Assembly: GCA_965366835.1 (NCBI GenBank)
Contig: CBDUGF010000004.1
Span: 1,273-65,272 of the forward strand
Source of the DNA: an uncultured Rhodobacterales bacterium
GTDB taxonomy: Bacteria; Pseudomonadota; Alphaproteobacteria; Rhodobacterales; Rhodobacteraceae
Direction of reading: 5' to 3'
Length of the DNA stretch: 64,000 nt
Every line of letters starts with the position of its first letter. Positions within the stretch are counted from its first letter, which is position 1. Shown in pieces: positions 21,298 through 37,456 of the stretch. Position numbers and translations under genes: made by a program. Below the pieces are notes generated by a model. It saw nothing but the letters and a program-made list of their open reading frames with translations. It was not told where the DNA came from and made no database searches.

Positions 21298-21340
21298 AGC
21301 CTGTTCCCCGCTGCTTTGCTCGCGCAGGCTACAGGCGCTA

Positions 21341-21370: not shown

Positions 21371-21399
21371 TTCGCCAGGATGGGCGATCCGTCTGCCGT

Positions 21400-22683
21400 C
21401 TACAATTCGGGATAGATCGGAAACCGCGCGCAAAGCTGGGCCACTTGCGCTTTCACCTTGGCTTCCACCGCACCGTTACCGTCTTCGCCATTCGCGGCCA
21501 GCCCGTCGACCACCTCGATGATCCAGTCGGCGATCTGGCGGAACTCGGTGACACCGAATCCGCGCGTTGTGCCCGCGGGCGAGCCGAGGCGCACGCCGCT
21601 GGTGATCGTCGGCTTTTCCGGATCGAACGGCACGCCGTTCTTATTGCAGGTGATGCGCGCCCGCCCCAGCGCCTTTTCGGTGGCGTTGCCCTTCACCCCC
21701 TTGGGTCGCAGATCGACCAGCAAAACATGCGTATCGGTGCCGCCGGTGACGAGATCGAGCCCGCCCTTCATCAACTGATCGCCCATCGCCTGGGCATTGG
21801 CCACAACCGCCTTGGCATACTCCTTGAAATCGGGCCGCAGCGCCTCGCCAAAAGCCACCGCCTTGGCCGCGATCACATGCATCAGAGGCCCGCCCTGGAT
21901 GCCTGGGAAAATGGCGGAGTTCACCTTCTTGGCGATTTCTTCATCATTTGTGAGGATCATGCCCCCACGCGGTCCGCGCAGCGTCTTGTGCGTCGTCGTC
22001 GTGGCGACATGGGCATGCGGGAACGGGCTCGGGTGAACGCCCGCCGCCACCAGCCCGGCGAAATGCGCCATATCGACATGCAGGAGCGCGCCGACGCTGT
22101 CGGCGATCTCGCGCATACGCGCGAAATCGATCTCGCGCGGAATCGCACTGCCCCCGGCGATGATCAGCTTGGGCGCATGCGCCTTGGCCAGTTCTTCCAC
22201 CTGGTCGTAATCCAGCAGGTTGTCCTGCTTGCGCACGCCATATTGCACGGCGTTGAACCATTTGCCCGATTGGTTGGGCTTGGCGCCATGGGTCAGGTGC
22301 CCCCCGGCGTCGAGGCTCATGCCGAGTATCGTGTCACCAGGCGTCAATAGCGCCTGATAGACGCCCTGGTTGGCCTGGCTGCCGGAGTTGGGCTGGACAT
22401 TGGCAAAGCCACAGCCAAACAGCTCTTTCGCCCGGTCAATCGCCAATGTTTCTGCGATATCGACAAATTCGCAGCCGCCGTAGTAACGCCGCCCGGGATA
22501 GCCTTCGGCATATTTGTTGGTCATCACCGAACCCTGCGCCTGCATCACGGCTTGAGAAACGATGTTTTCGCTGGCAATCAGTTCGATTTCGTCGCGCTGG
22601 CGGCCCAGTTCCTTCTCGATCGCGTCAAAGATTTCAGGGTCGCGGCTGGCGAGATCTTCGGTGAAAAATCCGGGGTTGGACAT
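21400..22683 (-). CDS. glyA: serine hydroxymethyltransferase
   Basis: 427 aa with PLP site [14 protein letters not shown]. Full-length SHMT similarity. Confidence 0.97.
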
Positions 22684-22865
22684 GAGGCGCTGTCTCCGTC
22701 ACTGATGTGGCACATGGCTGTTGGGCGCTGTCGTAAGCCATTGTGCGCGGGCTTGAAAGCCCCGATTCCGACCATTGGCCTTGCCAGCGCGGCAATCATC
22801 GTGCAGGTGAAAGGGCGTTGGGGACCATCCGGCCCCGGCGCCGCCGTTTTTGGAAGCTTTTGCGC

Positions 22866-23627
22866 ATGAGCCTGAAAATCGCCTTTGTCGCTTCGGATGC
22901 GCCTATTGCGCAAACCGCGCGCGCGGCTTTGATCGGGCGCTATGGCAACAACGACGAAAACGAGGCGGATGTGATCGTGGCGCTTGGCGGCGACGGTTTC
23001 ATGTTGCACACGCTGCACCGAACCCAGGACATGGATGCGCCGGTCTATGGAATGAACCGAGGCACGGTCGGATTCCTGATGAACGAATACGCCGAGGCCG
23101 ATCTGCCCGAGCGGCTGGCCAGCGCAGAGGAGGCGGTGATCAATCCGCTGTCGATGCGCGCCACGCGAGGAGATGGATCGGTGCACGAGGCGCTGGCGAT
23201 CAACGAAGTTTCGCTGCTGCGGATGGGGCCGCAAACGGCGAAGCTGAAGATCACGGTGGACGGGCGGCTTCGCATGGAAGAGTTGGTCTGCGATGGCGCG
23301 CTCGTGTCCACGCCGGCAGGCTCCACAGCCTACAACTACTCGGCGCACGGGCCGATCCTGCCCATCGGGTCGGAAGTGCTGGCGCTCACCGCGATCGCCC
23401 CGTTCCGACCGCGGCGCTGGCGCGGCGCGCTTTTGCCCAAGGGCGCCGATGTGCGCATCGAGGTGCAGAACCCGGAAAAGCGACCCGTCATGGCCCATGC
23501 GGATTCGCGCGCGGTGCTCTATGTGCAGACAGTCGATATCCGCTCGGAACCGTCGATTGCGCACCGATTGCTTTTCGATCCCGGCCATGGGCTGGAAGAG
23601 CGTCTGATACGAGAACAGTTCGTCTGA
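22866..23627 (+). CDS. nadK: NAD kinase
   Basis: GGDGFML motif and NEVSL...[18 protein letters not shown]. Start set at ATG 22866 ([10 protein letters not shown]). Confidence 0.9.
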
Positions 23628-23691: not shown

Positions 23692-24453
23692 TCAGGCCCG
23701 GGTCACCCGAAGGTTGAATGCCGCAAGAAGCGCATCGAAACGCGCATCCGGCATCGCATCGGTAATCACCGTGTCGCCAGACCTGAGAGACGGCAGACGT
23801 AGTGCCGGTTTGCGCGCCTGATCGGTGAATTTGGTGGCATCGACCGCCATGATCGCGCGTCCGGCGATGTTCATCATTGCGTCGGCCATGTCGACCTCGC
23901 ATTGATCATGCACCATGAATCCGCGCTCGGGATGTACCAGTGACGCCGACAGGATCGCCAGATCCGCCGAGAACCCGGCAATCACCTCATAGGCCACCCT
24001 GTCGAAAGCTGCTCCGTCGTGGTCGCGCAGCTGGGTGCCCGCGATGAACACTCGGTTGCCCTCAACCAGCGACAGGGTCGAGGCGATGAAAGCCGAATTG
24101 GTCACCACCGTCAGGTTGCGCTTCTGGCGCAACGCCTGAGCGACGAAGCCCGACGTGCTGCCGGTGTCGATCGCCAGTGTCGCACCATCACGCACCAGTG
24201 CCGCCACTTCGCGGGCAATCGCCACCTTGGCAGCACGATTGCGACTCATCCGGGCCTGGAACGGAGGATCGGTCGGGCTCATCGTGCTGACGATTGCGCC
24301 GTGTACCTTGTACAACTCGCCACGCGCAACCAGCGGTTTGACGATCCGGCGGATGGTCTGGTCGGACACACCCAACATCTGCGAAAGTTCGCTCACCTTC
24401 ACTGTGCCATGCAGGTGAACCGCTGCTTTCAGCTCCTGTTCATGTTTCGACAT
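23692..24453 (-). CDS. DeoR/GlpR family transcriptional regulator
   Basis: N-terminal wHTH (VSELSQMLGVSDQTIRRIVKPL) plus a DeoR C-terminal sugar-phosphate-isomerase-like sensor domain. Divergent from the oxidoreductase gene. Confidence 0.88.
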   Translation of the reverse strand: MSKHEQELKAAVHLHGTVKVSELSQMLGVSDQTIRRIVKPLVARGELYKVHGAIVSTMSPTDPPFQARMSRNRAAKVAIAREVAALVRDGATLAIDTGSTSGFVAQALRQKRNLTVVTNSAFIASTLSLVEGNRVFIAGTQLRDHDGAAFDRVAYEVIAGFSADLAILSASLVHPERGFMVHDQCEVDMADAMMNIAGRAIMAVDATKFTDQARKPALRLPSLRSGDTVITDAMPDARFDALLAAFNLRVTRA

Positions 24454-24522
24454 CAGACTCGGCCCATCGCAGCGTTCCAAAATGTGCTATTGCAGGAAGT
24501 TCATCACCTCAACCATACGCAT

Positions 24523-24550
24523 ATCAACAAAAAACAACGTTTTTGTTGAT
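24523..24550. promoter_or_regulatory. candidate DeoR operator: inverted repeat ATCAACAAAAA-N6-TTTTTGTTGAT
   Basis: Perfect 11-bp arms in the divergent deoR/oxidoreductase promoter region. The right arm TTTTTGTTGATT recurs at 29652-29663. Confidence 0.5.
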
Positions 24551-24607
24551 TTAATGTCGCTTTCAGGCTGACATGGCACCAGATTCGCGGATTTCACAGG
24601 CGGGCCG

Positions 24608-27031
24608 ATGCCGCAGTATTCAGCAAAACACCTGATTATCGGCGGCGGCATCATTGGCTGCTCAACCGCTTATCACCTTGCAAAATCAGGCGAAAAAGAT
24701 GTGGTCCTGCTGGAAAAATCGGCACTGACCGAAGGCGCCACCTGGCATGCGGCGGGGCTTGTAGGGCAGTTGCGCTCGTCCCGCAACACCACGCGGATGC
24801 TGAAACGTTCGGTGGCGCTCTACGATACGCTCGAGGCCGAAACCGGCATGGCGTTTGACTGGAAAAAGGTCGGCTCCCTGCGCCTTGCCGCCACGCCCGA
24901 ACGCCTCAAGGAGGCCAAGCGCCTCGCCACGATGGCACGCAGTTTCGATCTGGAAATGGAGATCATTACCGCGGTCGAGGCCAAGACCCTCTTCCCTTAC
25001 ATCGACGCCTCCAGCCTTCACGGCGCGGCCTTCATTCCCTCCGATGGCCATGTCGATCCGGCGGGCCTGTGCCTGGCCATCGCGGCTGGAGCGCGCAAAT
25101 ACGGCGCCGATCTGCGCCAGGGCGTCAGGGTGCTCGATTTCGAGGTAAGGAACGGCCGCATCACCCGCGTGACAACCAGCGAGGGCGATTGGGAGGCCGA
25201 AACCGTCGTGCTCGCCTCCGGCATGTGGAGCCGCGAATTGGGCGCCAAGCTGGGGCTCAAGGTGCCGGCTTGCGCAGTCGAACATCAGTACATCGTCACC
25301 GAACCGCTGCCCGACCCCGATCTGGTACGCACCCTGCCTTCGTTGCGCGATCCCGAGCGACTGGTCTACTACAAGCCCGATGCCGGCGGGCGAATGGTGA
25401 TCGGCGGCTACGAGGACGACACTTTACCCTTTGGCGACAAGGGTATACCGGGCGAATTCGTGCGCCAGCTCCTGCCCGACAATCTCGATCGCTTCGCACC
25501 TCTGGCCGAGCTTGCCGGCAAGGTCACACCGGTCATCAACGAGGTCGGCATCCGCCAGGTGATCAACGGCCCTATCCCGTATTCGGCGGATGGTGATTTT
25601 GTCATGGGCTGGGCGCCGGGCCTCGACAATTTGATGCTCGCCACCGGTTTTCTCTATGGCATCGCCGCAGGCGGCGGGGCGGGCGAGATGATCGCCGAAT
25701 GGATCACCCAAGGCCGTCCCTCGCTCGATCTCTGGCCCCTGGATGTGCGCCGTTTTTCGCCGCATCATGGCGCAAAAGCCTTCATGTATCCCCGTGCGGT
25801 CGAGCATTACGCGCATCACTACAAGATGCGCTATCCCGGACAGGAAGCCGAAACCGCCCGCGGCCTTCGCCTCTCCCCGCTCTACGAACGCCTCAAGCAG
25901 GCGGGCGCGGTCTGTGGCTCGAAAAACGGCTGGGAACGTCCGCTCTGGTTCGCCCCCAAAGGGCTGGCGCAGGTCGACCAGCTGGCGTTCGAAAGCCCCG
26001 GCTGGACCCAATACGCGGCAGAGGAACATCGCGCGGTGCGCGAGCGGGTGGCGCTGATCGACCAGTCGAGCTTTTCCAAGTTCGAACTTATCGGCCCCGG
26101 CGCTCTGCCCGCCCTGCAACGCATGGCCGTCTCGAACATGGACAAACCTTCAGGCAGCGTCATCTACACTCAACTTTGCAACGATCAAGGCGGGATCGAA
26201 GCCGATCTCACCATCACCCGCACGGGCGAGCAGAGTTTCTACATCGTCACGGGTGCGGGCTTTGGCGTGCATGACAGCGATTTCATCCGCCGGTCGCTGC
26301 CGCAGGACGGCTCGGCCCAGCTGATCGAAGTCACTTCCGCGCGCGCCGTGATCAACATCTGCGGACCCCGGTCCCGCGACGTGCTGCAAGCGGTGATCGA
26401 AGAGGACGTCTCGAACGCCGCCCTGCCCTTCGCCACCTGCCGCGAACTGACCCTCGGCGCCGCCCCGGTTCGTGCCGCGCGCATCGGCTATGTCGGCGAG
26501 TTGGGCTACGAGCTGCACATCCCCACAGAATTCGCCGCCCATACCTATGATCTCTTGTTGCGGGCCGGGCAGGCTCATGGCATCGCCAATGCAGGCTACC
26601 GCGCCATCGAGAGTCTGCGGCTGGAAAAGGGCTATCTCTATTGGTCCTCCGACATCACCCCTGATTACACGCCGATCGAAGCCGGCCTCGGCGCTCGCGT
26701 ACATCTGAAATCCAAGGGCGATTTTCGCGGTCGCAAGGCGCTGGAGCAACATAAGGAGAATGGCCCCCGCCAACAGCTCTGCTTCTTCACCAGCAATGCC
26801 CGATTGCCGGTCACCGGCGGGGAAACCATCCTGCATCGCGGCAAGACCGTCGCACCTTGTTCCAGCGCGGGCTTTGGCCATACCGTGGGCAAGACAATTC
26901 TTTATGGCTATCTGCCCGCCGATCTGACCGGCGAAACCGATTTCGAACTCGAGGTTTTCGGAGAGCGCCACCCGATTACGCGCGCACCGGGGCCACTTTA
27001 TGATCCCGAAAACGTCCGTTTGAAATCGTGA
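24608..27031 (+). CDS. FAD-dependent oxidoreductase with C-terminal GcvT-type folate-binding domain (dimethylglycine/sarcosine dehydrogenase family), paralogue 1
   Basis: 807 aa with Rossmann GGGIIGCSTAYHL, HAAGLVGQLRS and a C-terminal aminomethyltransferase fold (IGYVGELGYELHIP, GYRAIESLRLEKGY). Confidence 0.88.
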   Translation: MPQYSAKHLIIGGGIIGCSTAYHLAKSGEKDVVLLEKSALTEGATWHAAGLVGQLRSSRNTTRMLKRSVALYDTLEAETGMAFDWKKVGSLRLAATPERLKEAKRLATMARSFDLEMEIITAVEAKTLFPYIDASSLHGAAFIPSDGHVDPAGLCLAIAAGARKYGADLRQGVRVLDFEVRNGRITRVTTSEGDWEAETVVLASGMWSRELGAKLGLKVPACAVEHQYIVTEPLPDPDLVRTLPSLRDPERLVYYKPDAGGRMVIGGYEDDTLPFGDKGIPGEFVRQLLPDNLDRFAPLAELAGKVTPVINEVGIRQVINGPIPYSADGDFVMGWAPGLDNLMLATGFLYGIAAGGGAGEMIAEWITQGRPSLDLWPLDVRRFSPHHGAKAFMYPRAVEHYAHHYKMRYPGQEAETARGLRLSPLYERLKQAGAVCGSKNGWERPLWFAPKGLAQVDQLAFESPGWTQYAAEEHRAVRERVALIDQSSFSKFELIGPGALPALQRMAVSNMDKPSGSVIYTQLCNDQGGIEADLTITRTGEQSFYIVTGAGFGVHDSDFIRRSLPQDGSAQLIEVTSARAVINICGPRSRDVLQAVIEEDVSNAALPFATCRELTLGAAPVRAARIGYVGELGYELHIPTEFAAHTYDLLLRAGQAHGIANAGYRAIESLRLEKGYLYWSSDITPDYTPIEAGLGARVHLKSKGDFRGRKALEQHKENGPRQQLCFFTSNARLPVTGGETILHRGKTVAPCSSAGFGHTVGKTILYGYLPADLTGETDFELEVFGERHPITRAPGPLYDPENVRLKS

Positions 27032-27042
27032 AGGAGGCTCCG

Positions 27043-27975
27043 ATGGCAGACCACAACAAGGCTCAGGTAATCGCAGCGCTGCGCCACGCCCCCGGCTACG
27101 AGGGCGTGCCCGAAACATCCGATATCCAGCGCCTCGGCGGGCTCACCAACCTCGTCTATCGCGTGGCGCCGCCGGGCAAACCAGCGGTGATCGTGCGCAT
27201 TCCCGGTGCCGGAACCGAGGATTACATCAACCGCGAAGTCGAACTGCACAATGCCCAAGTCGCCGCCCGCGCCGGGATATCAGCACCGGTGATTTGGGGC
27301 GATCCCGAAAGCGGAGTGATGATTTCTGAATGCATCGAAAACATAGTGACGATGACACCCGAAAATTTCAAAACCCGTAAAGGTGCGGCGGGTCGCGCCG
27401 GCGTCGCATTCCGTCAACTCCATGACGCGCCCGAGCCGTTTGAATTCCGCTTCGAGCTTTTCGCGATGATCGACGACTATCTCGGCATTCTCTCGGGCAA
27501 AACGGTCGATCTGCCAGAGGGCTATCACAAGATCGTTGCGGCGGCGCAGCCTATCAAGGCTCTGCTTGAGGAGAAACCAGCCGCCTTGAAGCCCTGCCAT
27601 TGCGATCCGCTTTGCGAGAACTTCCTGGATGACGGCAGGCGCATGTGGATTGTCGATTTCGAGTATTCCGGCATGAACGATCCGCTTTGGGATCTCGGCG
27701 ATCTCTCGGTCGAAGCCGGGTTCGATGCAACGCAGGATGGCGAGATGATGCGTGCTTATTTCGGCGCCGAGCCCTCGCCGGCACAGCAAGGCCGGATGGT
27801 GATCTACAAGGCGATGTGCGATCTGCTTTGGACGCTCTGGGGCCTGATTCAACATGCTGACGGCAACCCGGCAGAAGATTTCTGGGCCTATTCCGTGGGC
27901 CGGTTCGAGCGCTGCAAGACCTTGATGAATTCTCCGGGCTTTGAGGACCATCTCGACGCTATGCGCAAGGGATGA
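27043..27975 (+). CDS. choline/ethanolamine kinase family phosphotransferase (APH fold), copy 1
   Basis: Brenner motif HCDPLCENFL and choline-kinase motif WIVDFEYSGMNDPLWDLG. ATG 27043 is preceded by GAAGGAGG. Confidence 0.8.
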   Translation: MADHNKAQVIAALRHAPGYEGVPETSDIQRLGGLTNLVYRVAPPGKPAVIVRIPGAGTEDYINREVELHNAQVAARAGISAPVIWGDPESGVMISECIENIVTMTPENFKTRKGAAGRAGVAFRQLHDAPEPFEFRFELFAMIDDYLGILSGKTVDLPEGYHKIVAAAQPIKALLEEKPAALKPCHCDPLCENFLDDGRRMWIVDFEYSGMNDPLWDLGDLSVEAGFDATQDGEMMRAYFGAEPSPAQQGRMVIYKAMCDLLWTLWGLIQHADGNPAEDFWAYSVGRFERCKTLMNSPGFEDHLDAMRKG

Positions 27976-27999
27976 GCATTTGCCCATCCGCTCCGGGCC

Positions 28000-28764
28000 T
28001 CACCGCGCCAGCAATCCAAGCAACTCAGCGTGCAATTCCGGCGTCGCCGCCGAGACAACCGGCACGTCTCTGCCAAATCCCAACGTGTTGCCGTTCCAAT
28101 CGGTGATCACTCCGCCCGCCTCTTCGATCAAGGGCACCAGGGGCAGGTAATCATAGGGTTGTAGCTGGTAGTCTACCACCGCATCCACTTTGCCTTCTGC
28201 CAGCAGGGCATGGGGCTGACAGTCATAGCTCAGCCGCCGCAAACGCCCGGCGCGCATCAATCTTGCAAACAGCTCCGGATGATCCAGCCAGATCTTTTCG
28301 CCCTCGTTGACGAATAGCATGGCGTTGCCAAGATCCGTGACGCCGGAGGTGCGGATCTCGGCACCATTCAAGGCCGCACCGTGCCCTCGCACCGCCGCAT
28401 AAACCTGCCCCAGCGCGGGCATCCGCACGATCCCGAGCGCAGGCAGGCCGTTTTTCATCAAAGCCATCAACATCCCGAACAACGGTCCGCCGGCAATGAA
28501 ACTGCGCGTGCCGTCGATCGGATCGATCACCCAGATGCGCGCGCGTTTCAGCCCTTCCGCGCCGAATTCTTCGCCGTAGATTCCATCGTCGGGAAATTGC
28601 GCGGTCAACGCCGTCCGAATGGCGGCTTCAGTCTCGCGATCAGCCACCGTGACCGGGCTTGCATCGCCTTTCAGCTCAATGTCGACCCGCCCCTCGAAAT
28701 GCCGCATGACGATCTTCACCGCCTCATCGGTGATCTGCAAAGCCTGCCTGAGGTCTTCGATCAT
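28000..28764 (-). CDS. inositol monophosphatase family protein (HisN/IMPase-like phosphatase)
   Basis: 254 aa with IMPase motifs WVIDPIDGTRSFIAG and the upstream EE..metal site. Its start overlaps the upstream DeoR stop (ATGA). Confidence 0.82.
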   Translation of the reverse strand: MIEDLRQALQITDEAVKIVMRHFEGRVDIELKGDASPVTVADRETEAAIRTALTAQFPDDGIYGEEFGAEGLKRARIWVIDPIDGTRSFIAGGPLFGMLMALMKNGLPALGIVRMPALGQVYAAVRGHGAALNGAEIRTSGVTDLGNAMLFVNEGEKIWLDHPELFARLMRAGRLRRLSYDCQPHALLAEGKVDAVVDYQLQPYDYLPLVPLIEEAGGVITDWNGNTLGFGRDVPVVSAATPELHAELLGLLAR

Positions 28765-29567
28765 CTCGGCCCCGCGACCACGATTTCGGTACCCCAGCTC
28801 GCTGCCGACCGAACCAGAGCAGGCGGTGGCGCGGCTTCTGTCACCAGCATGTTCACATCGCTTGGATCGCTCACCACAATCGGCGCGGCGCGGCCGAATT
28901 TGGAACTGTCGGCGGCCACGATCCGCGCCTCTGCGCGTTCCATCATGGCGCGTGTCACCCGCGCCTCTTCCAGATCGTAAAGCATGAACCCGCTTTCGGC
29001 ATTGATCGCCGCCGCCGAAAGCACTGCCAGATCGGCACGGAAATTGCTGATGAAATCGCGCACTCCGGCCCCGAACACGCCGCCGTCATGGGCGCGCAAC
29101 TCGCCGCCCGGAATGAACACCCGGTTGTCATTGCGCGCTGCCAGCGCATAGGCCACGACCACCGAGTTGGTCACAACGAAAAGCTCGCGATGCGCCTTCA
29201 GCGCCTCGGCGATATAGGCGGTTGTGCTGCCGACATCGAGAAACAACGATTGACCGTTCTTAATCACACCGGCGACATGCGCCGCGATGCGCTGCTTGGC
29301 GCGCGGGTTCTCATCGCGACGCTGCGAAAAACTGAGTTCCACCGCGCCTTGCAGCATGTGCACTCCGCCATGCACCTTCTCCACCAGCCCCTGATCGGAA
29401 AGCTTTCTCACATTGCGGCGGACGGTTTCCTCGGTCACATGCAGTGCCTGCGCGATTGCATGAATGCGCATCGTTCCTCCGGAGCGCGCCACGAGATCGA
29501 GAATCTCCCCCTCGCGGTGAGACGCCGGTCGGCTACTCATGTCCTGTTGCTTGCGCTTGGCAGTCAT
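28761..29567 (-). CDS. DeoR/GlpR family transcriptional regulator (second copy)
   Basis: wHTH IHAIAQALHVTEETVRRNVRKL plus a DeoR C-terminal domain. Divergent from the ABC transporter genes. Start at 29567 or 29540. Confidence 0.88.
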   Translation of the reverse strand: MTAKRKQQDMSSRPASHREGEILDLVARSGGTMRIHAIAQALHVTEETVRRNVRKLSDQGLVEKVHGGVHMLQGAVELSFSQRRDENPRAKQRIAAHVAGVIKNGQSLFLDVGSTTAYIAEALKAHRELFVVTNSVVVAYALAARNDNRVFIPGGELRAHDGGVFGAGVRDFISNFRADLAVLSAAAINAESGFMLYDLEEARVTRAMMERAEARIVAADSSKFGRAAPIVVSDPSDVNMLVTEAAPPPALVRSAASWGTEIVVAGPR

Positions 29568-29651
29568 CGGCTCACCTCATGTCGCCCGGCCTTACCCGAA
29601 AAAACCACATTTCCACCGCACCAACCAGCATTTCTCGTGGGTTTTATTGGT

Positions 29652-29663
29652 TTTTTGTTGATT
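29652..29663. promoter_or_regulatory. candidate DeoR operator half-site TTTTTGTTGATT
   Basis: Exact 12-mer shared with 24539-24550. Located in the second deoR/ABC-transporter divergent promoter region. Confidence 0.45.
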
Positions 29664-29758
29664 CAAGCCGGAAACTGTTGAAATTTGACTCTCACAGGTC
29701 GGTGACTCGCGACACCACCCAAAAACCGGCCAGCAAGAAATTTCAGGGGGGATCCCAT

Positions 29759-30703
29759 ATGTTCAAGACACAACTTTTTGCCGCCTGTCTGGCCGGGGCC
29801 GCGTTAGCGGGCCCTGCGCTGGCCGAGGCGGAATCACAAGACCCGATCAAGCTCACGCTGCACGATTGGACCGGCCAGCTTCTGACCACCACGATCATGG
29901 GCAAGGTTCTGGCCGAGGCGGGTTACAACGTAGAATACGTGCAGGCGGATTACATCGCCCAGTTCGCCGGGCTCAAGACCGGCGATCTGCATGTCGCGAT
30001 GGAGATCTGGGAAACCACGGGCCGCGAGGCCATGGACGAGGCCACCGGCACCGGCAATGTCGTCAACCTGGGCGAAACCGGAATGATGGCGATCGAGGAA
30101 TGGTGGTATCCGTCTTACATGAAAGAGGTTTGCCCGGGACTGCCCGACTGGAAGGCGCTCAACGACTGTGCTCAGGAATTCGCCACGCCGGAGACCGCGC
30201 CGATGGGCCGATATCTCGGTGGGCCTGTCACCTGGGGCGGCTTTGATGATGAACGCGTCGAGGCGCTGGGCATGGATTTCGAAGTGGTCCATGCCGGCAC
30301 CGATGCCGCTCTTTTCGCCGAGCTTGAATCGGCCTATCAACGCAAGGCACCTGTCTTGCTCTGGGTCTATGCCCCACATTGGGCACCCGCCAAATATCAG
30401 GGCGAATGGGTCGAATTTCCGCCATACTCCGCCGAGTGCTATAACGATCCGTCTGTCGGAATGAACCCCGATGCGGCTTATGATTGCGGCAAACCGCGCG
30501 GCCCGATCTGGAAGGTTGCCTGGAAGGGCGTGCAAGAGAAATGGCCCGGTGCCGCCGAAGCGATCAAGGCTTTCAGAGTCTCGAACGACGACATGGGTGC
30601 GATGGTCGCTGCGGTCGATCTCGATGGCAAATCGGTCGATGAGGTCGCGCAGGGCTGGCTTGATGCCAACAAGGATGCGTGGATGGGCTGGATCGCCAAG
30701 TAG
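29759..30703 (+). CDS. glycine betaine/choline-type ABC transporter substrate-binding protein (ProX/OpuAC family)
   Basis: Signal peptide MFKTQLFAACLAGAALAGPALA. OpuAC-like body rich in Trp/Tyr (WWYPSYM, WGGFDD). Followed by proV/proW-like genes. Confidence 0.8.
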   Translation: MFKTQLFAACLAGAALAGPALAEAESQDPIKLTLHDWTGQLLTTTIMGKVLAEAGYNVEYVQADYIAQFAGLKTGDLHVAMEIWETTGREAMDEATGTGNVVNLGETGMMAIEEWWYPSYMKEVCPGLPDWKALNDCAQEFATPETAPMGRYLGGPVTWGGFDDERVEALGMDFEVVHAGTDAALFAELESAYQRKAPVLLWVYAPHWAPAKYQGEWVEFPPYSAECYNDPSVGMNPDAAYDCGKPRGPIWKVAWKGVQEKWPGAAEAIKAFRVSNDDMGAMVAAVDLDGKSVDEVAQGWLDANKDAWMGWIAK

Positions 30704-30815
30704 CGCACCTTTCAGCGCGGCACCGCTCCCTCGTGCCGCGCTGGTCATTCGCCGATGACCGGCCATGCCGGAGCCTCGGTGCGCCCATACTCACCCTTTG
30801 CCCGGACCCCGCCTG

Positions 30816-31847
30816 ATGGACAAGCCGATCCTGCTCGATTGTCGCAATGTCTGGAAGCTTTACGGCGCCCATCCCCGCCGCTTCTTTCAGACCCACGGCG
30901 GCGCTCCCAGCGCCGAGGCGATCAAGGCAGAGGGCCTGATCGGAGCCGTGCGCGACGCCTCGGTGCAAATCCGCCAGGGCGAAATTTTCGTGATCATGGG
31001 CCTGTCTGGCTCGGGCAAGTCAACACTGGTGCGCTGCCTGTCGCGGCTGATCGAACCCACGGGTGGCGAGATCCTGTTCGAAGGTCAGAACCTGTCGGCG
31101 ATGTCCGAGCGCGAGCTTATCGAAATCCGCCGCCGCAAGATGGGCATGGTGTTTCAGCATTTCGCGCTGCTGCCGCATCTGACCGTATTGCAGAACGCCG
31201 CTTTCCCGCTTGAAGTGCAGGGCGTGAGCCGCGCCAGGCGCGAAGCCCGCGCCCGGGAAATGGTCAATCTGGTCGGGCTTGAAGGGCGCGAAAACTATTA
31301 CCCGCGAGAGCTTTCCGGCGGCCAGCAGCAGCGCGTTGGCATTGCCCGCTCGCTAGCTGTCGAGCCTGACCTGTGGTTCCTCGACGAGCCTTTTTCTGCG
31401 CTCGATCCCCTGATCCGCCGCGAAATGCAGGATGAATTCCTGCGTTTGCAATCGCTCTTGCACAAGACCATCGTGTTCATCACCCATGATTTCGACGAGG
31501 CCATACGCCTGGCCGACCGGATCGCAGTGATGAAGGACGGCGCCATCGTGCAGGTCGCCACGCCGGAAGAGCTGGTGCTGAACCCGGCCACCGACTACGT
31601 GCAGGAGTTCACCCGCCACATCCCCCGTGCCAAGGTATTGACCCTGCGCAGCATCATGCGGCCCGGCGCGGCTCCCGGCGCGGTGGCGGGAACGCTGGCC
31701 GCCTCCACCCGTATCGAAGCGGCGGCGGATCGGATCGAGGCTGCCGATGCACCCTTCAACCTTGCCGGTGACGATGGCAGCGTGATCGGTCATGTCGGGC
31801 GCCAGGCGGTGATTGACGTTCTGATCGGGCGGAGGCTCGAGCGATGA
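30816..31847 (+). CDS. glycine betaine/proline-type ABC transporter ATP-binding protein (ProV/OpuAA family)
   Basis: Walker A GLSGSGKST, signature LSGGQQQRVGIAR and Walker B LWFLDEPFSALD, with a C-terminal CBS-like tail. Start at 30816 or 30765. Confidence 0.9.
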   Translation: MDKPILLDCRNVWKLYGAHPRRFFQTHGGAPSAEAIKAEGLIGAVRDASVQIRQGEIFVIMGLSGSGKSTLVRCLSRLIEPTGGEILFEGQNLSAMSERELIEIRRRKMGMVFQHFALLPHLTVLQNAAFPLEVQGVSRARREARAREMVNLVGLEGRENYYPRELSGGQQQRVGIARSLAVEPDLWFLDEPFSALDPLIRREMQDEFLRLQSLLHKTIVFITHDFDEAIRLADRIAVMKDGAIVQVATPEELVLNPATDYVQEFTRHIPRAKVLTLRSIMRPGAAPGAVAGTLAASTRIEAAADRIEAADAPFNLAGDDGSVIGHVGRQAVIDVLIGRRLER

Positions 31848-33853
31848 ACGCCCGGTTAAAACCGTTCCTGCATGCCGGCCCGCTGTTCTGGGCCGGGTTG
31901 TTCGCCATCACCTGGGCGCTGTCCACCTGGTCATTCCAGCTCTACAAGGCGCTCGATGCACGCTGGATCGTGAAATACCCCACTGGCTGGACGCTGCCGC
32001 TGGAAGGCGCGATTTCCGATGCGTTGAAATGGCTGGTCGAGGACGCGAGTTTCGGCCTGTTCAGCTTCCGCGACCTGACCCGATTCATCTCGGCGCTGAT
32101 CGAAGCACCCTACGATTTCGTACGCGGTCTCTTGATTGAAGGATTCCAATCAGGACTGGGCCAGCAGGCAGTGGATATCGCCCCATCGCTGAGCTGGATC
32201 GCGATCATCGTCACGCTCGCCGCCATGGGCCATTACGCTAAAAGCTGGGGCCTGGCCGCTTTGATAGCGGGGTGTTTCCTTTATCTGGCGATCTTCGGGC
32301 AATGGCATTCGGCGATGATCACGCTGGCCTCGGTGTTGATCTCCGTTCCCATCGGCGTGATGGGCGGGCTCTTGCTGGGCATTCTCGCCTATCGCTGGCC
32401 CTGGTTCGACCGGGCGTTGCGCCCTGTTCTCGACCTGATGCAGACGGTGCCGATCTTTGCCTATCTGGTGCCGATCCTGTTCCTGTTCGGCTTCGGTCCG
32501 GTCTCTGCTCTGGTCGCCACCATCATCTATGCCATGCCGCCCATGGTGCGGGTGACCACCGTGGCGCTTCAGGGTGTTCCATCCGAGATCCATGACGTTG
32601 GCCGCATGGTCGGCTGCACCAGACGGCAGATGATGTGGAAGGTGCTGGTGCCCTCCGCCGCGCCCACGCTGATGGTAGGCGTCAACCAGGTGATCATGCT
32701 GACGCTCAACATGGTGATCATCGCGTCGATGATCGGCGCCGGGGGTCTGGGCTATGATGTGCTGACTGCGCTGCGCCGTCTCGATATCGGCGGCGGGATC
32801 GAGGCTGGTGTCGCCATCGTCGTCATGGCGATTGCGCTCGACCGCCTCAGCCAGGCCTTCGCGACCCGCGCCGCCCATGATCGCGCGATGCCGCACGAGG
32901 CCAATCTCCTGCGCCGTCACCCGTGGAGCGCGACGGTGCTGCTGGTCATCATCGGCACCTTCATTCTGGGCCGTGTCATTCCGGCAGTTCAAAGCTTTCC
33001 CGACACTGCAACGCTTTCGACCGGCACGTTCGGGTCGGACGTGATGGAGTATATCAACGTCAATTTCTTTGACGCTTTCGAGGCGGTGAAAACCTTCTTC
33101 CTGACCTGGCTGCTTCTGCCGGTGAAGCGGTTTTTCGCAGGCATCCCATGGGCTTGGGGTATCGCGGCAATGACGTTGATCGGCTGGCGTATGGGCGGCT
33201 GGCGTCTGGCCATGATGACCGGTCTGATGAGTGCGTTCATCGCTGCCTCGGGGCTATGGCCCAAGGCGATGATCACAGTCTATCTCTGCGGCGTATCGGT
33301 GCTGATCGCCACCGTGATCGGCGTTCCCTTCGGTATCCTCGCCGCGCAAAACCAGACCGCCGGCCGCATCATCGGCTCGGTCATCGACACGCTGCAAACC
33401 CTGCCCAGCTTTGTCTATCTCATCCCGGTGGTGATGCTGTTCCGGGTCGGCGATTTCTCGGCCATGATCGCGGTGGTGCTCTATGCGTTGGCGCCGGCTG
33501 TGCGCTATGCCGCCCATGGCATCCGCTCGATTGACCCGCAGTTGATCGAGGCCGGGATTGTCTCGGGCTGCACGCCGCGCCAGCTGTTGTGGCGGATCAA
33601 GCTGCCGATGGCTTTCCCCGAGATCCTGCTGGGCCTCAACCAGACCATCATGCTGGCGCTGTCGATGCTGGTGATCACCGCGTTGGTCGGCACCCGCGAT
33701 CTGGGTCAGGAGGTCTATATCGCGCTGACCAAGGCCAATACCGGCCAAGGGATTGTCGCCGGTCTGTCGGTCGCCTTCATTGCGATGATCGCCGACCGCA
33801 TCCTGTCGGCCGCCGCCCATCATACCCGCCGCAAAATGGGGCTTCAAACATGA
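31844..33853 (+). CDS. ABC transporter permease, tandem-duplicated (two ProW-like BPD_transp_1 domains fused)
   Basis: 669 aa. Two similar halves, each carrying an EAA-like loop region (...LQTVPIFAYLVPILFLFG... and ...LQTLPSFVYLIPVVMLFR...). The start overlaps the proV stop. Confidence 0.85.
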   Translation: MNARLKPFLHAGPLFWAGLFAITWALSTWSFQLYKALDARWIVKYPTGWTLPLEGAISDALKWLVEDASFGLFSFRDLTRFISALIEAPYDFVRGLLIEGFQSGLGQQAVDIAPSLSWIAIIVTLAAMGHYAKSWGLAALIAGCFLYLAIFGQWHSAMITLASVLISVPIGVMGGLLLGILAYRWPWFDRALRPVLDLMQTVPIFAYLVPILFLFGFGPVSALVATIIYAMPPMVRVTTVALQGVPSEIHDVGRMVGCTRRQMMWKVLVPSAAPTLMVGVNQVIMLTLNMVIIASMIGAGGLGYDVLTALRRLDIGGGIEAGVAIVVMAIALDRLSQAFATRAAHDRAMPHEANLLRRHPWSATVLLVIIGTFILGRVIPAVQSFPDTATLSTGTFGSDVMEYINVNFFDAFEAVKTFFLTWLLLPVKRFFAGIPWAWGIAAMTLIGWRMGGWRLAMMTGLMSAFIAASGLWPKAMITVYLCGVSVLIATVIGVPFGILAAQNQTAGRIIGSVIDTLQTLPSFVYLIPVVMLFRVGDFSAMIAVVLYALAPAVRYAAHGIRSIDPQLIEAGIVSGCTPRQLLWRIKLPMAFPEILLGLNQTIMLALSMLVITALVGTRDLGQEVYIALTKANTGQGIVAGLSVAFIAMIADRILSAAAHHTRRKMGLQT

Positions 33854-34737
33854 CAACTCCTGCCGATGCCGCCCTGGCCCGCGCTGCCGGATTGCCGATC
33901 TGGACCGCGCCTCGCGATGTGCAGTTGCTGGGCGGAGGGATCACCAATTTCAACGTCTCGCTGGTGGATCAGGGCAATCGCTATGTGGTGCGCGTGGGCG
34001 AGGACATTCCGCTGCACGGTATCCTGCGTGCAAACGAGTTGGCCGCGCATCGCGCCGCGCAGGCGGTGGGGCTGGCGCCCGCGATCCGGCATGCCGAGCC
34101 TGGTATTCTTGCGATTGAGTTCATTGACAGCAAGACGTTGGGCGAAGCCGAGGTGCGCGCCCCCGAGATGCTGGAGCGGATCGTGCCGCTTCTGCATCGC
34201 TGCCATCACGAGGCGTTTGCAGCGCTGCGTGGGCCGGTGCTGGCCTTCTGGGTGTTCCACGTTCTGCGCGATTATGCCGCCACGCTGCGCGCGGGCAACT
34301 CGCCCTACCTGGCCCGGCTGCCAGACCTGCTTGCCACTGCCGACGGGCTGGAAGCTGCCATCGGGCCGGTCGAAATCGTGTTGGGCCACAACGATCTTCT
34401 GCCCGCCAATTTTCTCGACGACGGAGAAAAACTCTGGCTGATCGACTGGGAATATGCCGGTCTCAACTCTCCGCTTTTCGATCTGGCCGGCCTTGCAACC
34501 AACAATGGTCTTTCCGCCACCCAGGAGGATTGGCTGTTGGAGGCATATTACGACAAAGCGGTTAACGACACCTTACGGCGCCGGTTTGCTGCGATGAAAT
34601 GCGCCTCTTTGATGCGCGAAACCATGTGGTCGATGGTCTCCGAACTGCATTCGGAGATCGACTTCGACTACGCCGCCTATACGCGCGAAAATCAGGGCCG
34701 TCTCGATGCGGCGCTGGCGCATTTCCAAGCCCTGTGA
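33850..34737 (+). CDS. choline/ethanolamine kinase family phosphotransferase (APH fold), copy 2
   Basis: Brenner motif HNDLLPANFL and choline-kinase motif WLIDWEYAGLNSPLFDLA. ATG 33850 overlaps the permease stop (ATGA). Confidence 0.8.
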   Translation: MTTPADAALARAAGLPIWTAPRDVQLLGGGITNFNVSLVDQGNRYVVRVGEDIPLHGILRANELAAHRAAQAVGLAPAIRHAEPGILAIEFIDSKTLGEAEVRAPEMLERIVPLLHRCHHEAFAALRGPVLAFWVFHVLRDYAATLRAGNSPYLARLPDLLATADGLEAAIGPVEIVLGHNDLLPANFLDDGEKLWLIDWEYAGLNSPLFDLAGLATNNGLSATQEDWLLEAYYDKAVNDTLRRRFAAMKCASLMRETMWSMVSELHSEIDFDYAAYTRENQGRLDAALAHFQAL

Positions 34738-34744
34738 GGTTTTC

Positions 34745-37183
34745 ATGAGCACGCTTCCCTCCTCCTCGAAAGTGATTGTCATCGGGGGCGGTATCGTCGG
34801 CTGTTCCACCGCCTATCATCTCGGAAAGCTGGGGGTGGAAACGGTCTTGATCGAGCGCAAGAAACTCACTTCGGGGACTACGTTTCACGCCGCCGGACTG
34901 GTCGGGCAGCTGCGCTCGAACGCCAATATCACCCAGCTTCTGGGCTATTCCGTCGAGCTTTACGACCGGCTGGAAAAAGAGACCGGGCAGGCGACGGGCT
35001 GGAAAATGAATGGCGGGCTGCGGCTGGCCTGCAATCAGGAACGCTGGACCGAGGTGAAACGCCAGGCCACTACGGCGCATTCCTTTGGGCTCGACATGCA
35101 GCTTCTGAGCCCGAAAGAGGCGCAGGATCTCTGGCCCTTGATGGATGTGAGCGATGTTGTCGGCGCCGCCTTCCTGCCCACCGATGGCCAGGCCAACCCC
35201 TCGGACATAACGCTGTCACTGGCCAAGGGTGCGCGCATGGGCGGAGTGCAGATCCTTGAGGATACAAGGGCGCTGCGCGTGGTGGTGGAAAAAGGTGTGA
35301 TCATCGGGGTGGAGACCGACAAGGGGCTGATTGCATGCGAGAAAGTGGTGCTGTGCGGCGGCCAGTGGAGCCGGGATTTTGCCGCACAGTCGGGGGTGAA
35401 TGTCCCGCTGGTTTCGGTCGAACATCAATACATGGTGACCGAACCGATCAAGGGCGTGACCCCGGATATGCCCACCCTGCGCGACCCGGACCGGCTGACC
35501 TATTACAAGGAAGAGGTCGGCGGGCTGGTGATGGGCGGCTACGAGGCCAATCCGATTCCCTGGGCGATTGACGGCATCCCGAAGGGCTTTCACTACACCG
35601 TGCTCGACAGCAATTTCGACCATTTCGAACAGATTGTCGAGCTGGCTTTGGGCCGGGTTCCGGCGCTGGAGACCGCCGGGATCAAGCAGCTGTTGAACGG
35701 GCCGGAGAGCTTTACCCCGGATGGCAATTTCATCCTCGGTGAAGCGCCGGAGCTGAAGAATTTCTTTGTCGGAGCAGGGTTTAACGCCTTTGGAATCGCC
35801 TCGGGCGGCGGCGCGGGCATGGCGCTGGCCGAGTGGGTTGCGAAGGGCGCACCGCCGTTCGATCTCTGGCCGGTGGATATCCGCCGCTTTGGCCGGCCGC
35901 ATTTCGATACCGATTGGGTGCGCACCCGCACGCTGGAGGCGTATGGCAAGCATTACACCATGGCCTGGCCATTCGAGGAGCACTCCTCGGGGCGGCCTTG
36001 CCGCAAATCGCCGCTCTATGACACGCTGCTGGCACGCGGCGCTTGTTTTGGTGAAAAGCTGGGCTGGGAACGGCCCAACTGGTTTGCGCATGAGGGCCAG
36101 GAGGCGCGCGATATCTACTCCTTCGGGCGGCAGAACTGGTTTGAAAATGTCGGTGAAGAGCACCGTGCGGCGCGCGCGGCGGCGGTGCTGATCGACCAGA
36201 CTTCCTTTGCCAAGTTCACCCTCAAGGGGCCGGATGCCGAAGCCGCGCTGAGCTGGATCGCGGCAAATGATGTGAGCGGGCCGGTGGGCAAGCTGACCTA
36301 TACCCAGATGCTGAACGATCACGGCGGGATCGAATGCGATCTGACCTGTGTGCGGGTGGCTGAGGACGAGTATTACATCGTCACCGGCACCGGCTTTGCC
36401 ACCCATGATTTTCACTGGATTTCCAGCAACATACCCGAGGGGATGAACGCCCAGCTGGTGGATGTCACCTCGGGTCATTCGGTGCTGTCGCTGATGGGGC
36501 CGAAGGCGCGCGATATCCTTCAAGCGGTGACCCGCAACGATGTGTCGAACGCCGCCTTTCCGTTTGGCACCGCGCAGGTGATCGGCATCGCGGGCTGTCC
36601 GGTGCGCGCGCTGCGGCTGACCTATGTGGGCGAGCTGGGCTGGGAGCTGCACCTGCCGACTGAATATGCCGCGACGGTTTACCAGACCCTTACGGCGGCG
36701 GGCGCGGCGCATGGGTTGCGCGATGCGGGCTATCGCGCGATCGAGAGCTTGCGGCTGGAGAAAGGTTACCGCGCCTGGGGGTCGGATATCGGGCCGGACC
36801 ATACGCCGGATGAGGCGGGTTTGGGATGGGCGGTAAAACTGAAGAAAAACAATGACTTCAAAGGGCGCGCGGCGGCAGAGAAACAACGCCGCGAAGGGGT
36901 GAGGAAAATCCTCGCCGGGTTCACGGCGGCGCCTGACGTGGTGCTGTCGGGGCGCGAGACGATCTATCGCAACGGCGAGCGCGTAGGCTGGCTCAGCTCT
37001 GGCGGATATGGATATACAATAGAAAAATCAATCGGTTACGGATATGTGCGCAGCAGCGATCCGATTGATGCGGGCTTTGTGATGGCGGGCGATTACGAGC
37101 TGGAAGTGGCGACCGAGCGGGTGGCTTGCGAGGTGCATCTGGCGCCGCTCCATGATCCGGAGATGGCACGGATCAAGTGCTGA
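34745..37183 (+). CDS. FAD-dependent oxidoreductase with C-terminal GcvT-type domain (dimethylglycine/sarcosine dehydrogenase family), paralogue 2
   Basis: 812 aa with GGGIVGCSTAYHL, HAAGLVGQLRS, TYVGELGWELHLP and GYRAIESLRLEKGY. ATG 34745 lies 5 nt after GAGG. Confidence 0.88.
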   Translation: MSTLPSSSKVIVIGGGIVGCSTAYHLGKLGVETVLIERKKLTSGTTFHAAGLVGQLRSNANITQLLGYSVELYDRLEKETGQATGWKMNGGLRLACNQERWTEVKRQATTAHSFGLDMQLLSPKEAQDLWPLMDVSDVVGAAFLPTDGQANPSDITLSLAKGARMGGVQILEDTRALRVVVEKGVIIGVETDKGLIACEKVVLCGGQWSRDFAAQSGVNVPLVSVEHQYMVTEPIKGVTPDMPTLRDPDRLTYYKEEVGGLVMGGYEANPIPWAIDGIPKGFHYTVLDSNFDHFEQIVELALGRVPALETAGIKQLLNGPESFTPDGNFILGEAPELKNFFVGAGFNAFGIASGGGAGMALAEWVAKGAPPFDLWPVDIRRFGRPHFDTDWVRTRTLEAYGKHYTMAWPFEEHSSGRPCRKSPLYDTLLARGACFGEKLGWERPNWFAHEGQEARDIYSFGRQNWFENVGEEHRAARAAAVLIDQTSFAKFTLKGPDAEAALSWIAANDVSGPVGKLTYTQMLNDHGGIECDLTCVRVAEDEYYIVTGTGFATHDFHWISSNIPEGMNAQLVDVTSGHSVLSLMGPKARDILQAVTRNDVSNAAFPFGTAQVIGIAGCPVRALRLTYVGELGWELHLPTEYAATVYQTLTAAGAAHGLRDAGYRAIESLRLEKGYRAWGSDIGPDHTPDEAGLGWAVKLKKNNDFKGRAAAEKQRREGVRKILAGFTAAPDVVLSGRETIYRNGERVGWLSSGGYGYTIEKSIGYGYVRSSDPIDAGFVMAGDYELEVATERVACEVHLAPLHDPEMARIKC

Positions 37184-37240
37184 AATGCGCCACCGCGCGG
37201 CGCGTTAGGATTTGACGGAGATCGCCGAATTCAGGGGGGT

Positions 37241-37284
37241 GACTCCCGGCTGCCACCCGGCTGACTCCCGGCTGCCGGGGAGTC
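37241..37284. repeat. direct repeat GACTCCCGGCTGCC x2 followed by complementary GGGGAGTC
   Basis: Copies at 37241-37254 and 37263-37276. CGGCTGACTCCCGGCTG also occurs reverse-complemented at 19975-19993 with 1 mismatch. Confidence 0.7.
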
Positions 37285-37337: not shown

Positions 37338-37456
37338 TCGAATTCCGACGCGGAATTCGATTTGTTTTCCGACGCGGAAAACAGTGCCAGTCCGTCGAGG
37401 CCACACTGCGCTGAAATCCGCGTCGGATTTCGAACCGAATTTCGCGTCGAAATTCG
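37338..37456. repeat. four-hairpin composite intergenic element, copy B
   Basis: TCGAATTCCG-ACG-CGGAATTCGA, GTTTTCCG-ACG-CGGAAAAC, a 30-nt spacer, GAAATCCG-CGT-CGGATTTC and CGAATTTCG-CGT-CGAAATTCG. All stems are perfect. Ends 6 nt from the HMG-CoA reductase stop. Confidence 0.85.

Follow-up and report, generated by a model that had tools for sequence, protein, structure and literature searches.

A ten-gene cluster occupies positions 23692-37183 of the window, i.e., the whole 64-kb stretch of contig CBDUGF010000004.1 (uncultured Rhodobacterales bacterium) that was analysed. It joins two pairs of a choline-kinase-like gene and a gene for a predicted N-demethylase dependent on flavin adenine dinucleotide (FAD) and tetrahydrofolate (THF) to a transporter, a phosphatase and two DeoR-family regulators. 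On balance, its probable function in aerobic bacteria of sea and soil is the breakdown of N,N-dimethylethanolamine (DMEA) and N-methylethanolamine (MMEA), or of very close analogues. The support for this assignment is comparative, with families, catalytic residues, gene pairing, co-conservation, operator motif and genomic context all taken from sequence. The gene list was checked with six-frame open reading frames (ORFs), codon-position GC, and Pfam and NCBIfam scans, and the features are as follows.

23692-24480 (-): DeoR1, DeoR/GlpR family, HTH_DeoR + DeoRC; divergent from DAO1-Kin1
24523-24550: candidate operator, palindromic, ATCAACAAAAA-N6-TTTTTGTTGAT, in the DeoR1/DAO1 intergenic region
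24608-27031 (+): DAO1, 807 aa, DAO + FAO_M + GCV_T + GCV_T_C; predicted DMGDH-like FAD/THF N-demethylase
27028-27975 (+): Kin1, Choline_kinase/APH; start codon GTG 27028 overlaps the DAO1 stop, alternative start ATG 27043
28000-28764 (-): IMPase, Inositol_P (170 bits), HisN-like; putative phosphoethanolamine phosphatase
28761-29567 (-): DeoR2, DeoR/GlpR family; 4-nt overlap with the IMPase gene, co-transcribed
29652-29662 (+): third exact copy of the 11-mer TTTTTGTTGAT, in the intergenic region between DeoR2 and the binding-protein gene
29759-30703 (+): binding protein (SBP), OpuAC-type, TmoX-like subfamily; periplasmic, altered pocket
30765-31847 (+): ProV, ProV-type ATP-binding cassette (ABC) ATPase
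31844-33853 (+): ProW, fused double ProW/ChoW-type permease with two BPD_transp_1 domains
33850-34737 (+): Kin2, choline-kinase type with a variant amine pocket; ATGA overlap with ProW
34745-37183 (+): DAO2, predicted DMGDH-like FAD/THF N-demethylase; the longest ORF starts at ATG 34706

All ten genes lie where the sequence-only reading of this DNA had placed them and belong, according to Pfam and NCBIfam, to the families it had named. The overlaps that it reported, of 4 nt between the IMPase and DeoR2 genes and as ATGA between ProW and Kin2, are both present, and there is no ATGA overlap between Kin2 and DAO2. The start of DAO2 is most likely ATG 34745, which lies 7 nt past the Kin2 stop with GAGG ahead of it and has equal spacing in orthologues; ATG 34706 is less likely. 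Translation of the binding protein begins at ATG 29759 with a signal peptide, and the ProV ORF may begin at a downstream ATG (MDKPILL...). The two oxidoreductases had been recognised as paralogues, and DAO1 and DAO2 indeed share 47.7% identity over 798 aa, with 25.6% for Kin1 and Kin2 and 40% for DeoR1 and DeoR2. Judging by these values, the duplication is ancient and each kinase has diverged far beyond its demethylase.

The arrangement is conserved well outside the window. A locus scan with one genome per species gave 52 loci (about 58 overall); corrected queries were used for the pair counts, and opposite-strand ORFs produced by ORF clustering in high-GC loci were disregarded as spurious. 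Kin2 has DAO2 directly after it in 37 of 46 loci, and contig ends account for about three of the other nine; DAO1 directly precedes Kin1 in 23 of 26. Kinase and demethylase genes in the window overlap or are spaced by 4-7 nt, and in the orthologues checked the spacing is 7-27 nt; translational coupling of the two genes is frequent among the pairs of many taxa. The complete double module is found in 15 loci from Rhodobacterales, Hyphomicrobiales, and Rhodospirillales (Roseovarius, Seohaeicola, Amylibacter, Aliiroseovarius, Roseibium, Microbaculum, Pseudaminobacter, and others), which bears out the co-occurrence of the module across genomes. More than 20 loci share the order SBP-ProV-ProWW-Kin2-DAO2, the IMPase gene lies within the cluster in 18, and DAO1 orthologues upstream of Kin1 are 51-79% identical to the window protein. 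Kinase-DAO pairs also occur in metagenome-assembled genomes (MAGs) of Chromatiales, Bacteroidetes, and Actinomycetota. The gene arrangement is thus far beyond chance and forms a conserved unit in dozens of genomes of several orders. Transporter types vary by lineage (ProU-type, PotD-type, APC, and TRAP, i.e., amino acid-polyamine-organocation permeases and tripartite ATP-independent periplasmic transporters, for the latter two).

Mesorhizobium and its relatives (L014, L016, L019, L025, and L030) carry a PotABCD-type ABC transporter in place of the TmoX-like one, and the kinase also stands beside an aldehyde dehydrogenase (ALDH), a LysR regulator, and a cytosine-deaminase-like amidohydrolase. 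DAO2 is present in L016, L019, and L025, where it is followed by a Kin1-type kinase with no DAO1 (two kinases for one demethylase), and is missing from L014 and L030.

Regarding the kinases, the Brenner motifs (HCDPLCENFL in Kin1 and HNDLLPANFL in Kin2) and the choline-kinase motifs (VDFEYSG and IDWEYAG, respectively) are present as had been read. Together, HCDPLCENF with VDFEYSGMNDPLWD in Kin1 and HNDLLPANF with IDWEYAGLNSPLFD in Kin2 represent the HxDxxxxN and (I/V)D(F/W)EY...N...(F/W)D motifs, and both proteins score 65-68 bits against Pfam PF01633, compared with a cut-off of 29 bits. The published choline contacts of LicA are T29, D176, V178, Y197, E213, W251, W254, and Y268. All 18 of 18 members of the Kin1 family have these residues, save that Leu replaces V178. 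The Kin2 family has Asn in place of E213 in 34 of 34 members and has lost one of the two cage Trp residues (which one depends on the alignment), keeping Y197, Y268, and one Trp. Compared by residues, the two pockets fit a full methyl-ammonium cage for a more methylated base in Kin1 and a reduced cage for a less methylated base in Kin2. Thus, both kinases share the Brenner and choline-kinase motifs with LicA and Kin1 shares its choline-contacting residues as well, while Kin2 is without the rim Glu and one cage Trp. LicA, however, serves cell-wall phosphocholine decoration, whereas the window kinases stand in a catabolic, demethylase-linked context. The choline-kinase motifs and pocket, together with this catabolic context, rule out aminoglycoside-type APH resistance genes.

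The nearest solved structures are PDB 3DXQ ("choline/ethanolamine kinase family protein") and pneumococcal LicA. Compared by eye, the active-site stretch of 3DXQ is far closer to Kin1 than to Kin2, being near-identical to the former, so that 3DXQ looks like a Kin1 orthologue and a solved structure for this uncharacterised kinase family may already be in the PDB. More than 7000 kinase homologues were found at E<=1e-10, mostly in marine metagenomes, with no functional name past phosphotransferase, choline kinase, or thiamine-kinase-like. The best NCBIfam match of the kinases is the guanitoxin kinase GntI, at 133-140 bits compared with a cut-off of 357. A kinase for N-hydroxy or N-oxide compounds, an idea taken from this weak similarity, was dropped, as it leaves the linkage to ethanolamine-pathway genes (see below) unexplained.

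Both demethylases match DAO, FAO_M, GCV_T, and GCV_T_C at full length, and neither reaches an NCBIfam equivalog model. They have the same four-domain architecture as DMGDH, DMGO, and SARDH and keep their catalytic residues and folate domain. DAO2 scores 523 bits against rat DMGDH and, in the alignment, retains the flavinylated His (DMGO H48) and the catalytic His225/Tyr259 dyad of DMGO; both DAO families also share the H-A-A-G-L, HQY, and YY segments. Genes for electron-transfer flavoprotein (ETF) adjoin DAO genes in Salipiger and in locus L061, a further likeness to this group, and one difference lies in the constant pairing of DAO1 and DAO2 with a kinase. Oxidation of amines by flavin needs the lone pair of the nitrogen, i.e., a secondary or tertiary amine, and a quaternary amine cannot form the iminium intermediate. 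This excludes choline and phosphocholine as substrates of DAO1 and DAO2. Of the earlier proposal of a "choline-like" substrate, the methylated amino alcohol therefore stands, and choline itself as the flavoenzyme substrate does not. The substrates are likely the phosphorylated forms of dimethyl- and monomethylethanolamine, as read from the sequences and their chemistry.

About 50 positions are conserved in the DAO1 and DAO2 families and differ in DMGDH and DMGO, the two control sequences used. Among them are basic residues that are invariant in both DAO families, are not seen in DMGDH or DMGO, and lie next to active-site segments, namely an Arg nine residues past the flavinyl-His, a Trp-Lys pair, and an Arg three residues ahead of the catalytic Tyr. 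Counted from ATG 34706, the family-specific Arg and Lys of DAO2 are R70, K100, and R263. Such extra basic residues beside the active site would suit a phosphate group and are suggestive in that respect.

A precedent for demethylation of a phosphorylated base is available. The claim that no characterised route needs a kinase is out of date since 2025: in Eubacterium limosum, MthK phosphorylates choline, and MthB, of the MttB family, demethylates phosphocholine but not choline, giving dimethylaminoethanol phosphate (PMC12155760). Its authors argue that the phosphate provides the acidic group expected by the demethylase family of MthB (PMC12155760). The window system resembles MthK/MthB/MthC/MthA in that a kinase would make an amino-alcohol phosphate for a demethylase evolved on acidic methylamines, with the one-carbon (C1) unit passed to THF, and in that the kinase gene adjoins the demethylase gene; the kinases are likened here by layout. 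In contrast to the corrinoid methyltransferase of the acetogen, which yields methyl-THF, the window has a covalent-FAD dehydrogenase-GcvT fusion, which is oxidative, would yield methylene-THF, and cannot act on quaternary phosphocholine. It also adds a dedicated phosphatase and an ABC importer. A methyltransferase of the MttB superfamily with its corrinoid protein is absent from the window, where DAO-GcvT proteins are found instead. By analogy, then, the window system appears to work like MthK/MthB but is no member of it.

In uncultured anaerobes, relatives of the kinases also stand beside corrinoid demethylases. In a Spirochaetota MAG (L034, 4123-10425), two tandem kinases are each flanked by a corrinoid protein and a non-pyrrolysine MtmB-family methyltransferase, and a search with the L034 kinase gave 806 relatives at E<=1e-20, some labelled Spirochaetes or Desulfobacterales. 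Two unclassified metagenome contigs (L059, 1407-14954, and L060, 1326-14052) have genes for DeoR, an MTTB-family protein, a corrinoid protein, an MtmB-family protein, and the kinase (4-nt overlap), followed by an APC permease, a Metallophos phosphoesterase, and another permease. L059 alone also has an APH-type kinase after DeoR and a second choline-kinase-like gene before Metallophos. In L061, the kinase accompanies two DAO-GcvT genes, ETF, an Fe-S oxidoreductase, and a TRAP transporter. Clusters of the L034, L059, and L060 type look like a full stepwise anaerobic choline demethylation through phospho-bases, judging by their gene content, and would supply a candidate substrate for orphan non-pyrrolysine MtmB homologues. 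The same logic of kinase, demethylase, phosphatase, and DeoR regulator thus recurs with three unrelated demethylase families, which is the strongest argument that the product of the kinase is the substrate of the demethylase.

A different reading of the same genes is that the demethylases act on unphosphorylated amines, or on acids similar to dimethylglycine or sarcosine, with the kinases serving a later or parallel function (choline/ethanolamine salvage, inducer formation, or detoxification) and the IMPase balancing the phospho-pool. DAO1 and DAO2 are indeed 500-bit relatives of true DMGDH with the catalytic apparatus intact, Kin1 resembles an ordinary choline kinase, and some Kin2 orthologues have no demethylase, one of them lying beside a choline sulfatase. 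However, each demethylase paralogue has its own co-evolving kinase in conserved order and with tight spacing, and the kinase family has been recruited to two unrelated corrinoid demethylase families, one of which demonstrably requires a phosphorylated substrate. DeoR and phosphatase genes, moreover, are kept in both aerobic and anaerobic versions, and both DAO families carry the basic residues unseen in DMGDH and DMGO. Demethylation of unphosphorylated substrates is therefore regarded as rather unlikely.

Phosphorylation before demethylation would also give a place to the phosphatase. The best NCBIfam model of the IMPase is HisN (TIGR02067, 241.3 bits, below the cut-off of 275.15), and in the PDB it is closest to 5EQ7, 4N81, and M. 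tuberculosis HisN (5YHT); the first of these is a plant histidinol-phosphate phosphatase. HisN is thus the closest relative, and histidinol phosphate is a β-amino-alcohol phosphate, of the same chemical class as phosphoethanolamine. In contrast to HisN, the window protein stays under the equivalog cut-off, and its gene is embedded in, and co-conserved with, a catabolic cluster. Taken together, the matches are those of a HisN-like paralogue and fit an amino-alcohol phosphate as substrate. Among the loci without the IMPase gene, other phosphatases are found in or beside the cluster, being of the HAD type in L001 and L055 and Metallophos in L003, L059, and L060.

Genes next to the cluster in other genomes bear on the end product. 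Roseovarius indicus has a set of four genes after DAO2, for an amidohydrolase of the FGase family, a glutamine-synthetase (GS)-like ligase, an ALDH, and an iron-dependent alcohol dehydrogenase (Fe-ADH), and the first gene of the set overlaps DAO2. In Salipiger abyssi, DAO2 is followed by the ETF β/α genes, folD, purU, the same four families, glyA, and sdaA. An Actinomycetota MAG independently has genes for a short-chain dehydrogenase/reductase, an ALDH, a GS-like ligase, and an APC permease (TIGR00907) together with a kinase, DAO-GcvT, and a second kinase, and a Bacteroidetes MAG has a TIGR00907 APC permease with the kinase and DAO-GcvT. The proteomically induced ethanolamine pathway of Phaeobacter sp. 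MED193 consists of a γ-glutamylglycine amidohydrolase, an ethanolamine γ-glutamylase, and two dehydrogenases (PMC10132767). The amidohydrolase, GS-like ligase, ALDH, and alcohol dehydrogenase families beside the cluster in three lineages resemble this pathway and Streptomyces GlnA4, a likeness at family level only. As for differences, the importer in MED193 is EtoX, a TRAP transporter, whereas here it is of the ABC type, and the γ-glutamyl genes are not in the window. As far as gene families can indicate it, these neighbours suggest that the pathway ends in a primary amino alcohol, ethanolamine being the simplest choice.

The carbon skeleton is not fixed by the sequences, and the same mechanism could apply to another small N-methylated hydroxy compound, such as methylated aminopropanols, N-methylserinol, or N-methyl-serine or -homoserine. 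This would agree with the different transporter types between lineages, with a serine hydroxymethyltransferase (SHMT) and a class-V aminotransferase encoded just upstream in the window, and with the ability of HisN-type enzymes to take a substituted amino-alcohol phosphate. Nevertheless, the one downstream pathway that recurs is of the ethanolamine γ-glutamyl type, with glyA and sdaA behind it, and Kin1 has the exact choline pocket of LicA. Besides, the anaerobic relatives lie beside a gene of the MTTB family, to which the phosphocholine demethylase MthB belongs, and carboxylated substrates need no phosphate to mimic an acid. Such other substrates are accordingly thought unlikely, and the DMEA/MMEA route is retained as the preferred reading.

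The transporter was described in the sequence-only reading as having a ProX-type binding protein, which needs correction: its closest relative is TmoX, the binding protein for trimethylamine N-oxide (TMAO) of Ruegeria pomeroyi (PDB 4XZ6, 281 bits). The published TmoX pocket is formed by W55, W102, F106, E131, W177, F220, and W222, and the window protein has W-W-G-E-W-W-Y in place of W-W-F-E-W-F-W. Thus, four of the seven residues are kept, i.e., the aromatic box Trp55/Trp102/Trp177 and Glu131, and three are changed (F106G, F220W, and W222Y). The changed pocket is found in 14 of 15 cluster-linked orthologues, the remaining one having Ala at the first of these positions (F106A). By these residues, the binding protein appears to be a separate, conserved TmoX-like subfamily in which the change of F106 to Gly would open the pocket, and the resulting cavity at Phe106 could accommodate a methyl-ammonium head with a hydroxyethyl arm.

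ProV scores 352.9 bits against TIGR01186 (cut-off 326.6), and ABC_tran is its sole Pfam match past the curated cut-off. The osmoregulated ATPases ProV and OpuAA carry CBS domains, and none was detected in the window ProV by the Pfam scan, which points to nutrient uptake rather than osmoregulated uptake, to the extent that domain content predicts it. ProW reaches 411.9 bits against TIGR03416 (cut-off 363), summed over two fused copies that are 35% identical. In comparison with TmoXWV, the likeness lies in the binding-protein match and in the permease, which is a double ProW fusion both here and in the orthologues, and the differences are the three pocket changes of the kinase-linked subfamily and the lack of TMAO demethylase genes nearby. 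TMAO catabolism is ruled out by the different pocket and the absence of tdm, tmm, and dmm.

The match to TmoX at 281 bits, the four shared pocket residues including Glu131, and the passing of NCBIfam betaine/choline family cut-offs by ProV and ProW could in principle mean that the system is simply a TmoXWV/ProU paralogue for uptake of TMAO or osmolytes, with the kinase, oxidoreductase, and phosphatase genes as unrelated neighbours. This is very improbable. The three pocket residues differ consistently in cluster-linked orthologues, there are no tdm, tmm, or dmm genes, and ProV is without CBS osmosensing domains. ProW and Kin2 share the ATGA overlap, the order SBP-ProV-ProWW-Kin2-DAO2 persists in more than 20 loci, and a shared operator joins the transporter promoter to that of DAO1-Kin1.

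This operator was found between the divergent genes. Both regulators have the N-terminal HTH_DeoR and the C-terminal DeoRC sensor domain, and neither reaches an NCBIfam equivalog cut-off. The palindrome between DeoR1 and DAO1 has two exact 11-mer arms. At up to one mismatch, the 11-mer has four matches in the 64 kb, compared with 0.34 expected; the three exact ones among them all fall within the two divergent DeoR promoters. In other genera, at least 12 orthologous loci carry the core TTTGTTGA at the corresponding places in their promoters, and DeoR1 orthologues with 52-67% identity are at the equivalent position in 11 loci. DeoR2 is absent from the Roseibium and Seohaeicola versions, which have DeoR1 only, yet the motif is present at both promoters. 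Given the shared 11-mer and these DeoR1-only genomes, the two modules look like one regulon, and the DeoR proteins are predicted to bind TTTTTGTTGAT as the candidate operator. Promoter and terminator scans gave matches no more than at chance level.

The substrates, the sequence of reactions, what the DeoR proteins sense, and how the two modules divide the work are inferred from these observations. The TmoX-like binding protein, ProV, and the double ProW would import free DMEA and MMEA, whose hydroxyl would be phosphorylated by Kin1 and Kin2, so that a neutral alcohol becomes an acidic substrate similar to dimethylglycine or sarcosine. DAO1 and DAO2 would then oxidise the N-methyl groups of the phospho-base, with C1 passed to THF as 5,10-methylene-THF and electrons to ETF. 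The HisN-like IMPase would hydrolyse the end product, phosphoethanolamine, to ethanolamine, which would be converted to glycine by a γ-glutamyl pathway placed elsewhere in the genome. Two DeoR repressors would act on the shared TTTTTGTTGAT operator at both divergent promoters and would probably be released by phospho-bases. Tentatively, Kin1 and DAO1, with the full choline-type cage, would take the dimethyl compound, and Kin2 and DAO2, with the reduced cage and always beside the transporter and phosphatase, the monomethyl one. The core of the original proposal, i.e., O-phosphorylation of an amino alcohol, N-demethylation of the phospho-base onto THF, and a phosphatase at the end, is supported by all comparative tests that were run: kinase-demethylase pairing, the LicA-type pocket of Kin1, the HisN-like IMPase, the γ-glutamyl neighbours, and the anaerobic parallel.

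Several points weigh against this route. The 64-kb window contains no ethanolamine-pathway genes, and the link to that pathway is seen in 3 of about 58 loci, a fourth (L045) having Fe-ADH only. Six Kin2 loci have no adjacent demethylase. One of them is L045 (8738-12697), where a Kin2 orthologue with 64% identity is flanked by the Fe-alcohol dehydrogenase and a choline sulfatase (TIGR03417, 703 bits); this hints that some of the kinases act on choline itself, released from choline-O-sulfate. With its complete choline cage, Kin1 could likewise be a plain choline kinase, whose product could not be demethylated by a flavoenzyme. The need for two kinases is unexplained if phospho-MMEA passes straight from one demethylase to the other, and the route costs one ATP per molecule with no obvious return. 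The group-specific conservation in the DAO families, being drawn from sequence alone with two controls, is a weak point, and to our knowledge the environmental abundance of DMEA and MMEA is poorly documented.

According to a full-text literature search, no aerobic route with a kinase and DAO-GcvT and no catabolic genes for DMEA or MMEA have been described. What would be new here is the aerobic route, while the enzyme families and kinase-primed choline demethylation in an acetogen (2025) were already known. Partly methylated ethanolamines arise from phosphatidyl-mono- and -dimethylethanolamine lipids and from anaerobic choline demethylation, and the route would give them an aerobic fate. If it is correct, DMEA and MMEA would be mineralised to ethanolamine with C1 fed to folate, tying lipid-headgroup turnover to the carbon, nitrogen, and phosphorus cycles, and with DAO1 and DAO2, flavin amine dehydrogenases specific for phosphorylated substrates would be known for the first time. 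The 2025 principle that phosphorylation fits an amino alcohol to an acid-substrate demethylase would thereby extend to a flavoenzyme. A role would also be given to a kinase/demethylase pair annotated only as phosphotransferase, FAD-dependent oxidoreductase, or thiamine-kinase-like, and hypotheses would be provided for the orphan structure 3DXQ and for DeoR regulators with phospho-base effectors. In metagenomic surveys, the TmoX-like subfamily may be counted among TMAO transporters. Whether demethylation of phospho-bases is a general modular strategy, in which the kinase family, DeoR, and a phosphatase were joined independently to MttB, non-pyrrolysine MtmB, and FAD/GcvT demethylases, with the aerobic version widespread in marine Alphaproteobacteria, is judged to be evenly balanced.

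A plasmid search with the window DNA gave partial matches only, to plasmids of Salipiger abyssi and Ruegeria sp. THAF33, both of which carry IMPase, DeoR, SBP, ProV, double ProW, kinase, and DAO-GcvT genes. In the window, the cluster is surrounded by clp, ftsH, tol-pal, malic enzyme, nucleoside salvage, and branched-chain amino acid transporter genes, and given tol-pal, ftsH, clp, and the nucleoside-salvage genes, the window is chromosomal. The SHMT and class-V aminotransferase genes (20047-22683, -), just upstream of DeoR1, could use up the methylene-THF and glycine of the pathway; they are not co-conserved with the cluster at other loci, save glyA in Salipiger. Between SHMT and DeoR1 lies a weak NAD-kinase-like ORF of 294 aa (22743-23627, +).

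Downstream of DAO2, the intergenic region has a tandem array of three overlapping 18-nt copies with 11-nt spacing (37237-37276), followed by REP-like palindromic units (37338-37456), in which TTCCGACGCGGAA occurs twice and 49-nt inverted arms are 78% complementary. Directly downstream, at 37462-38715 (-) and 38924-40813 (-), an HMG-CoA reductase gene (343 bits) stands beside that of an acetyl-CoA-synthetase-like AMP-binding enzyme. HMG-CoA reductase is unexpected in an alphaproteobacterium, and it may be a degradative (class II-type) enzyme.

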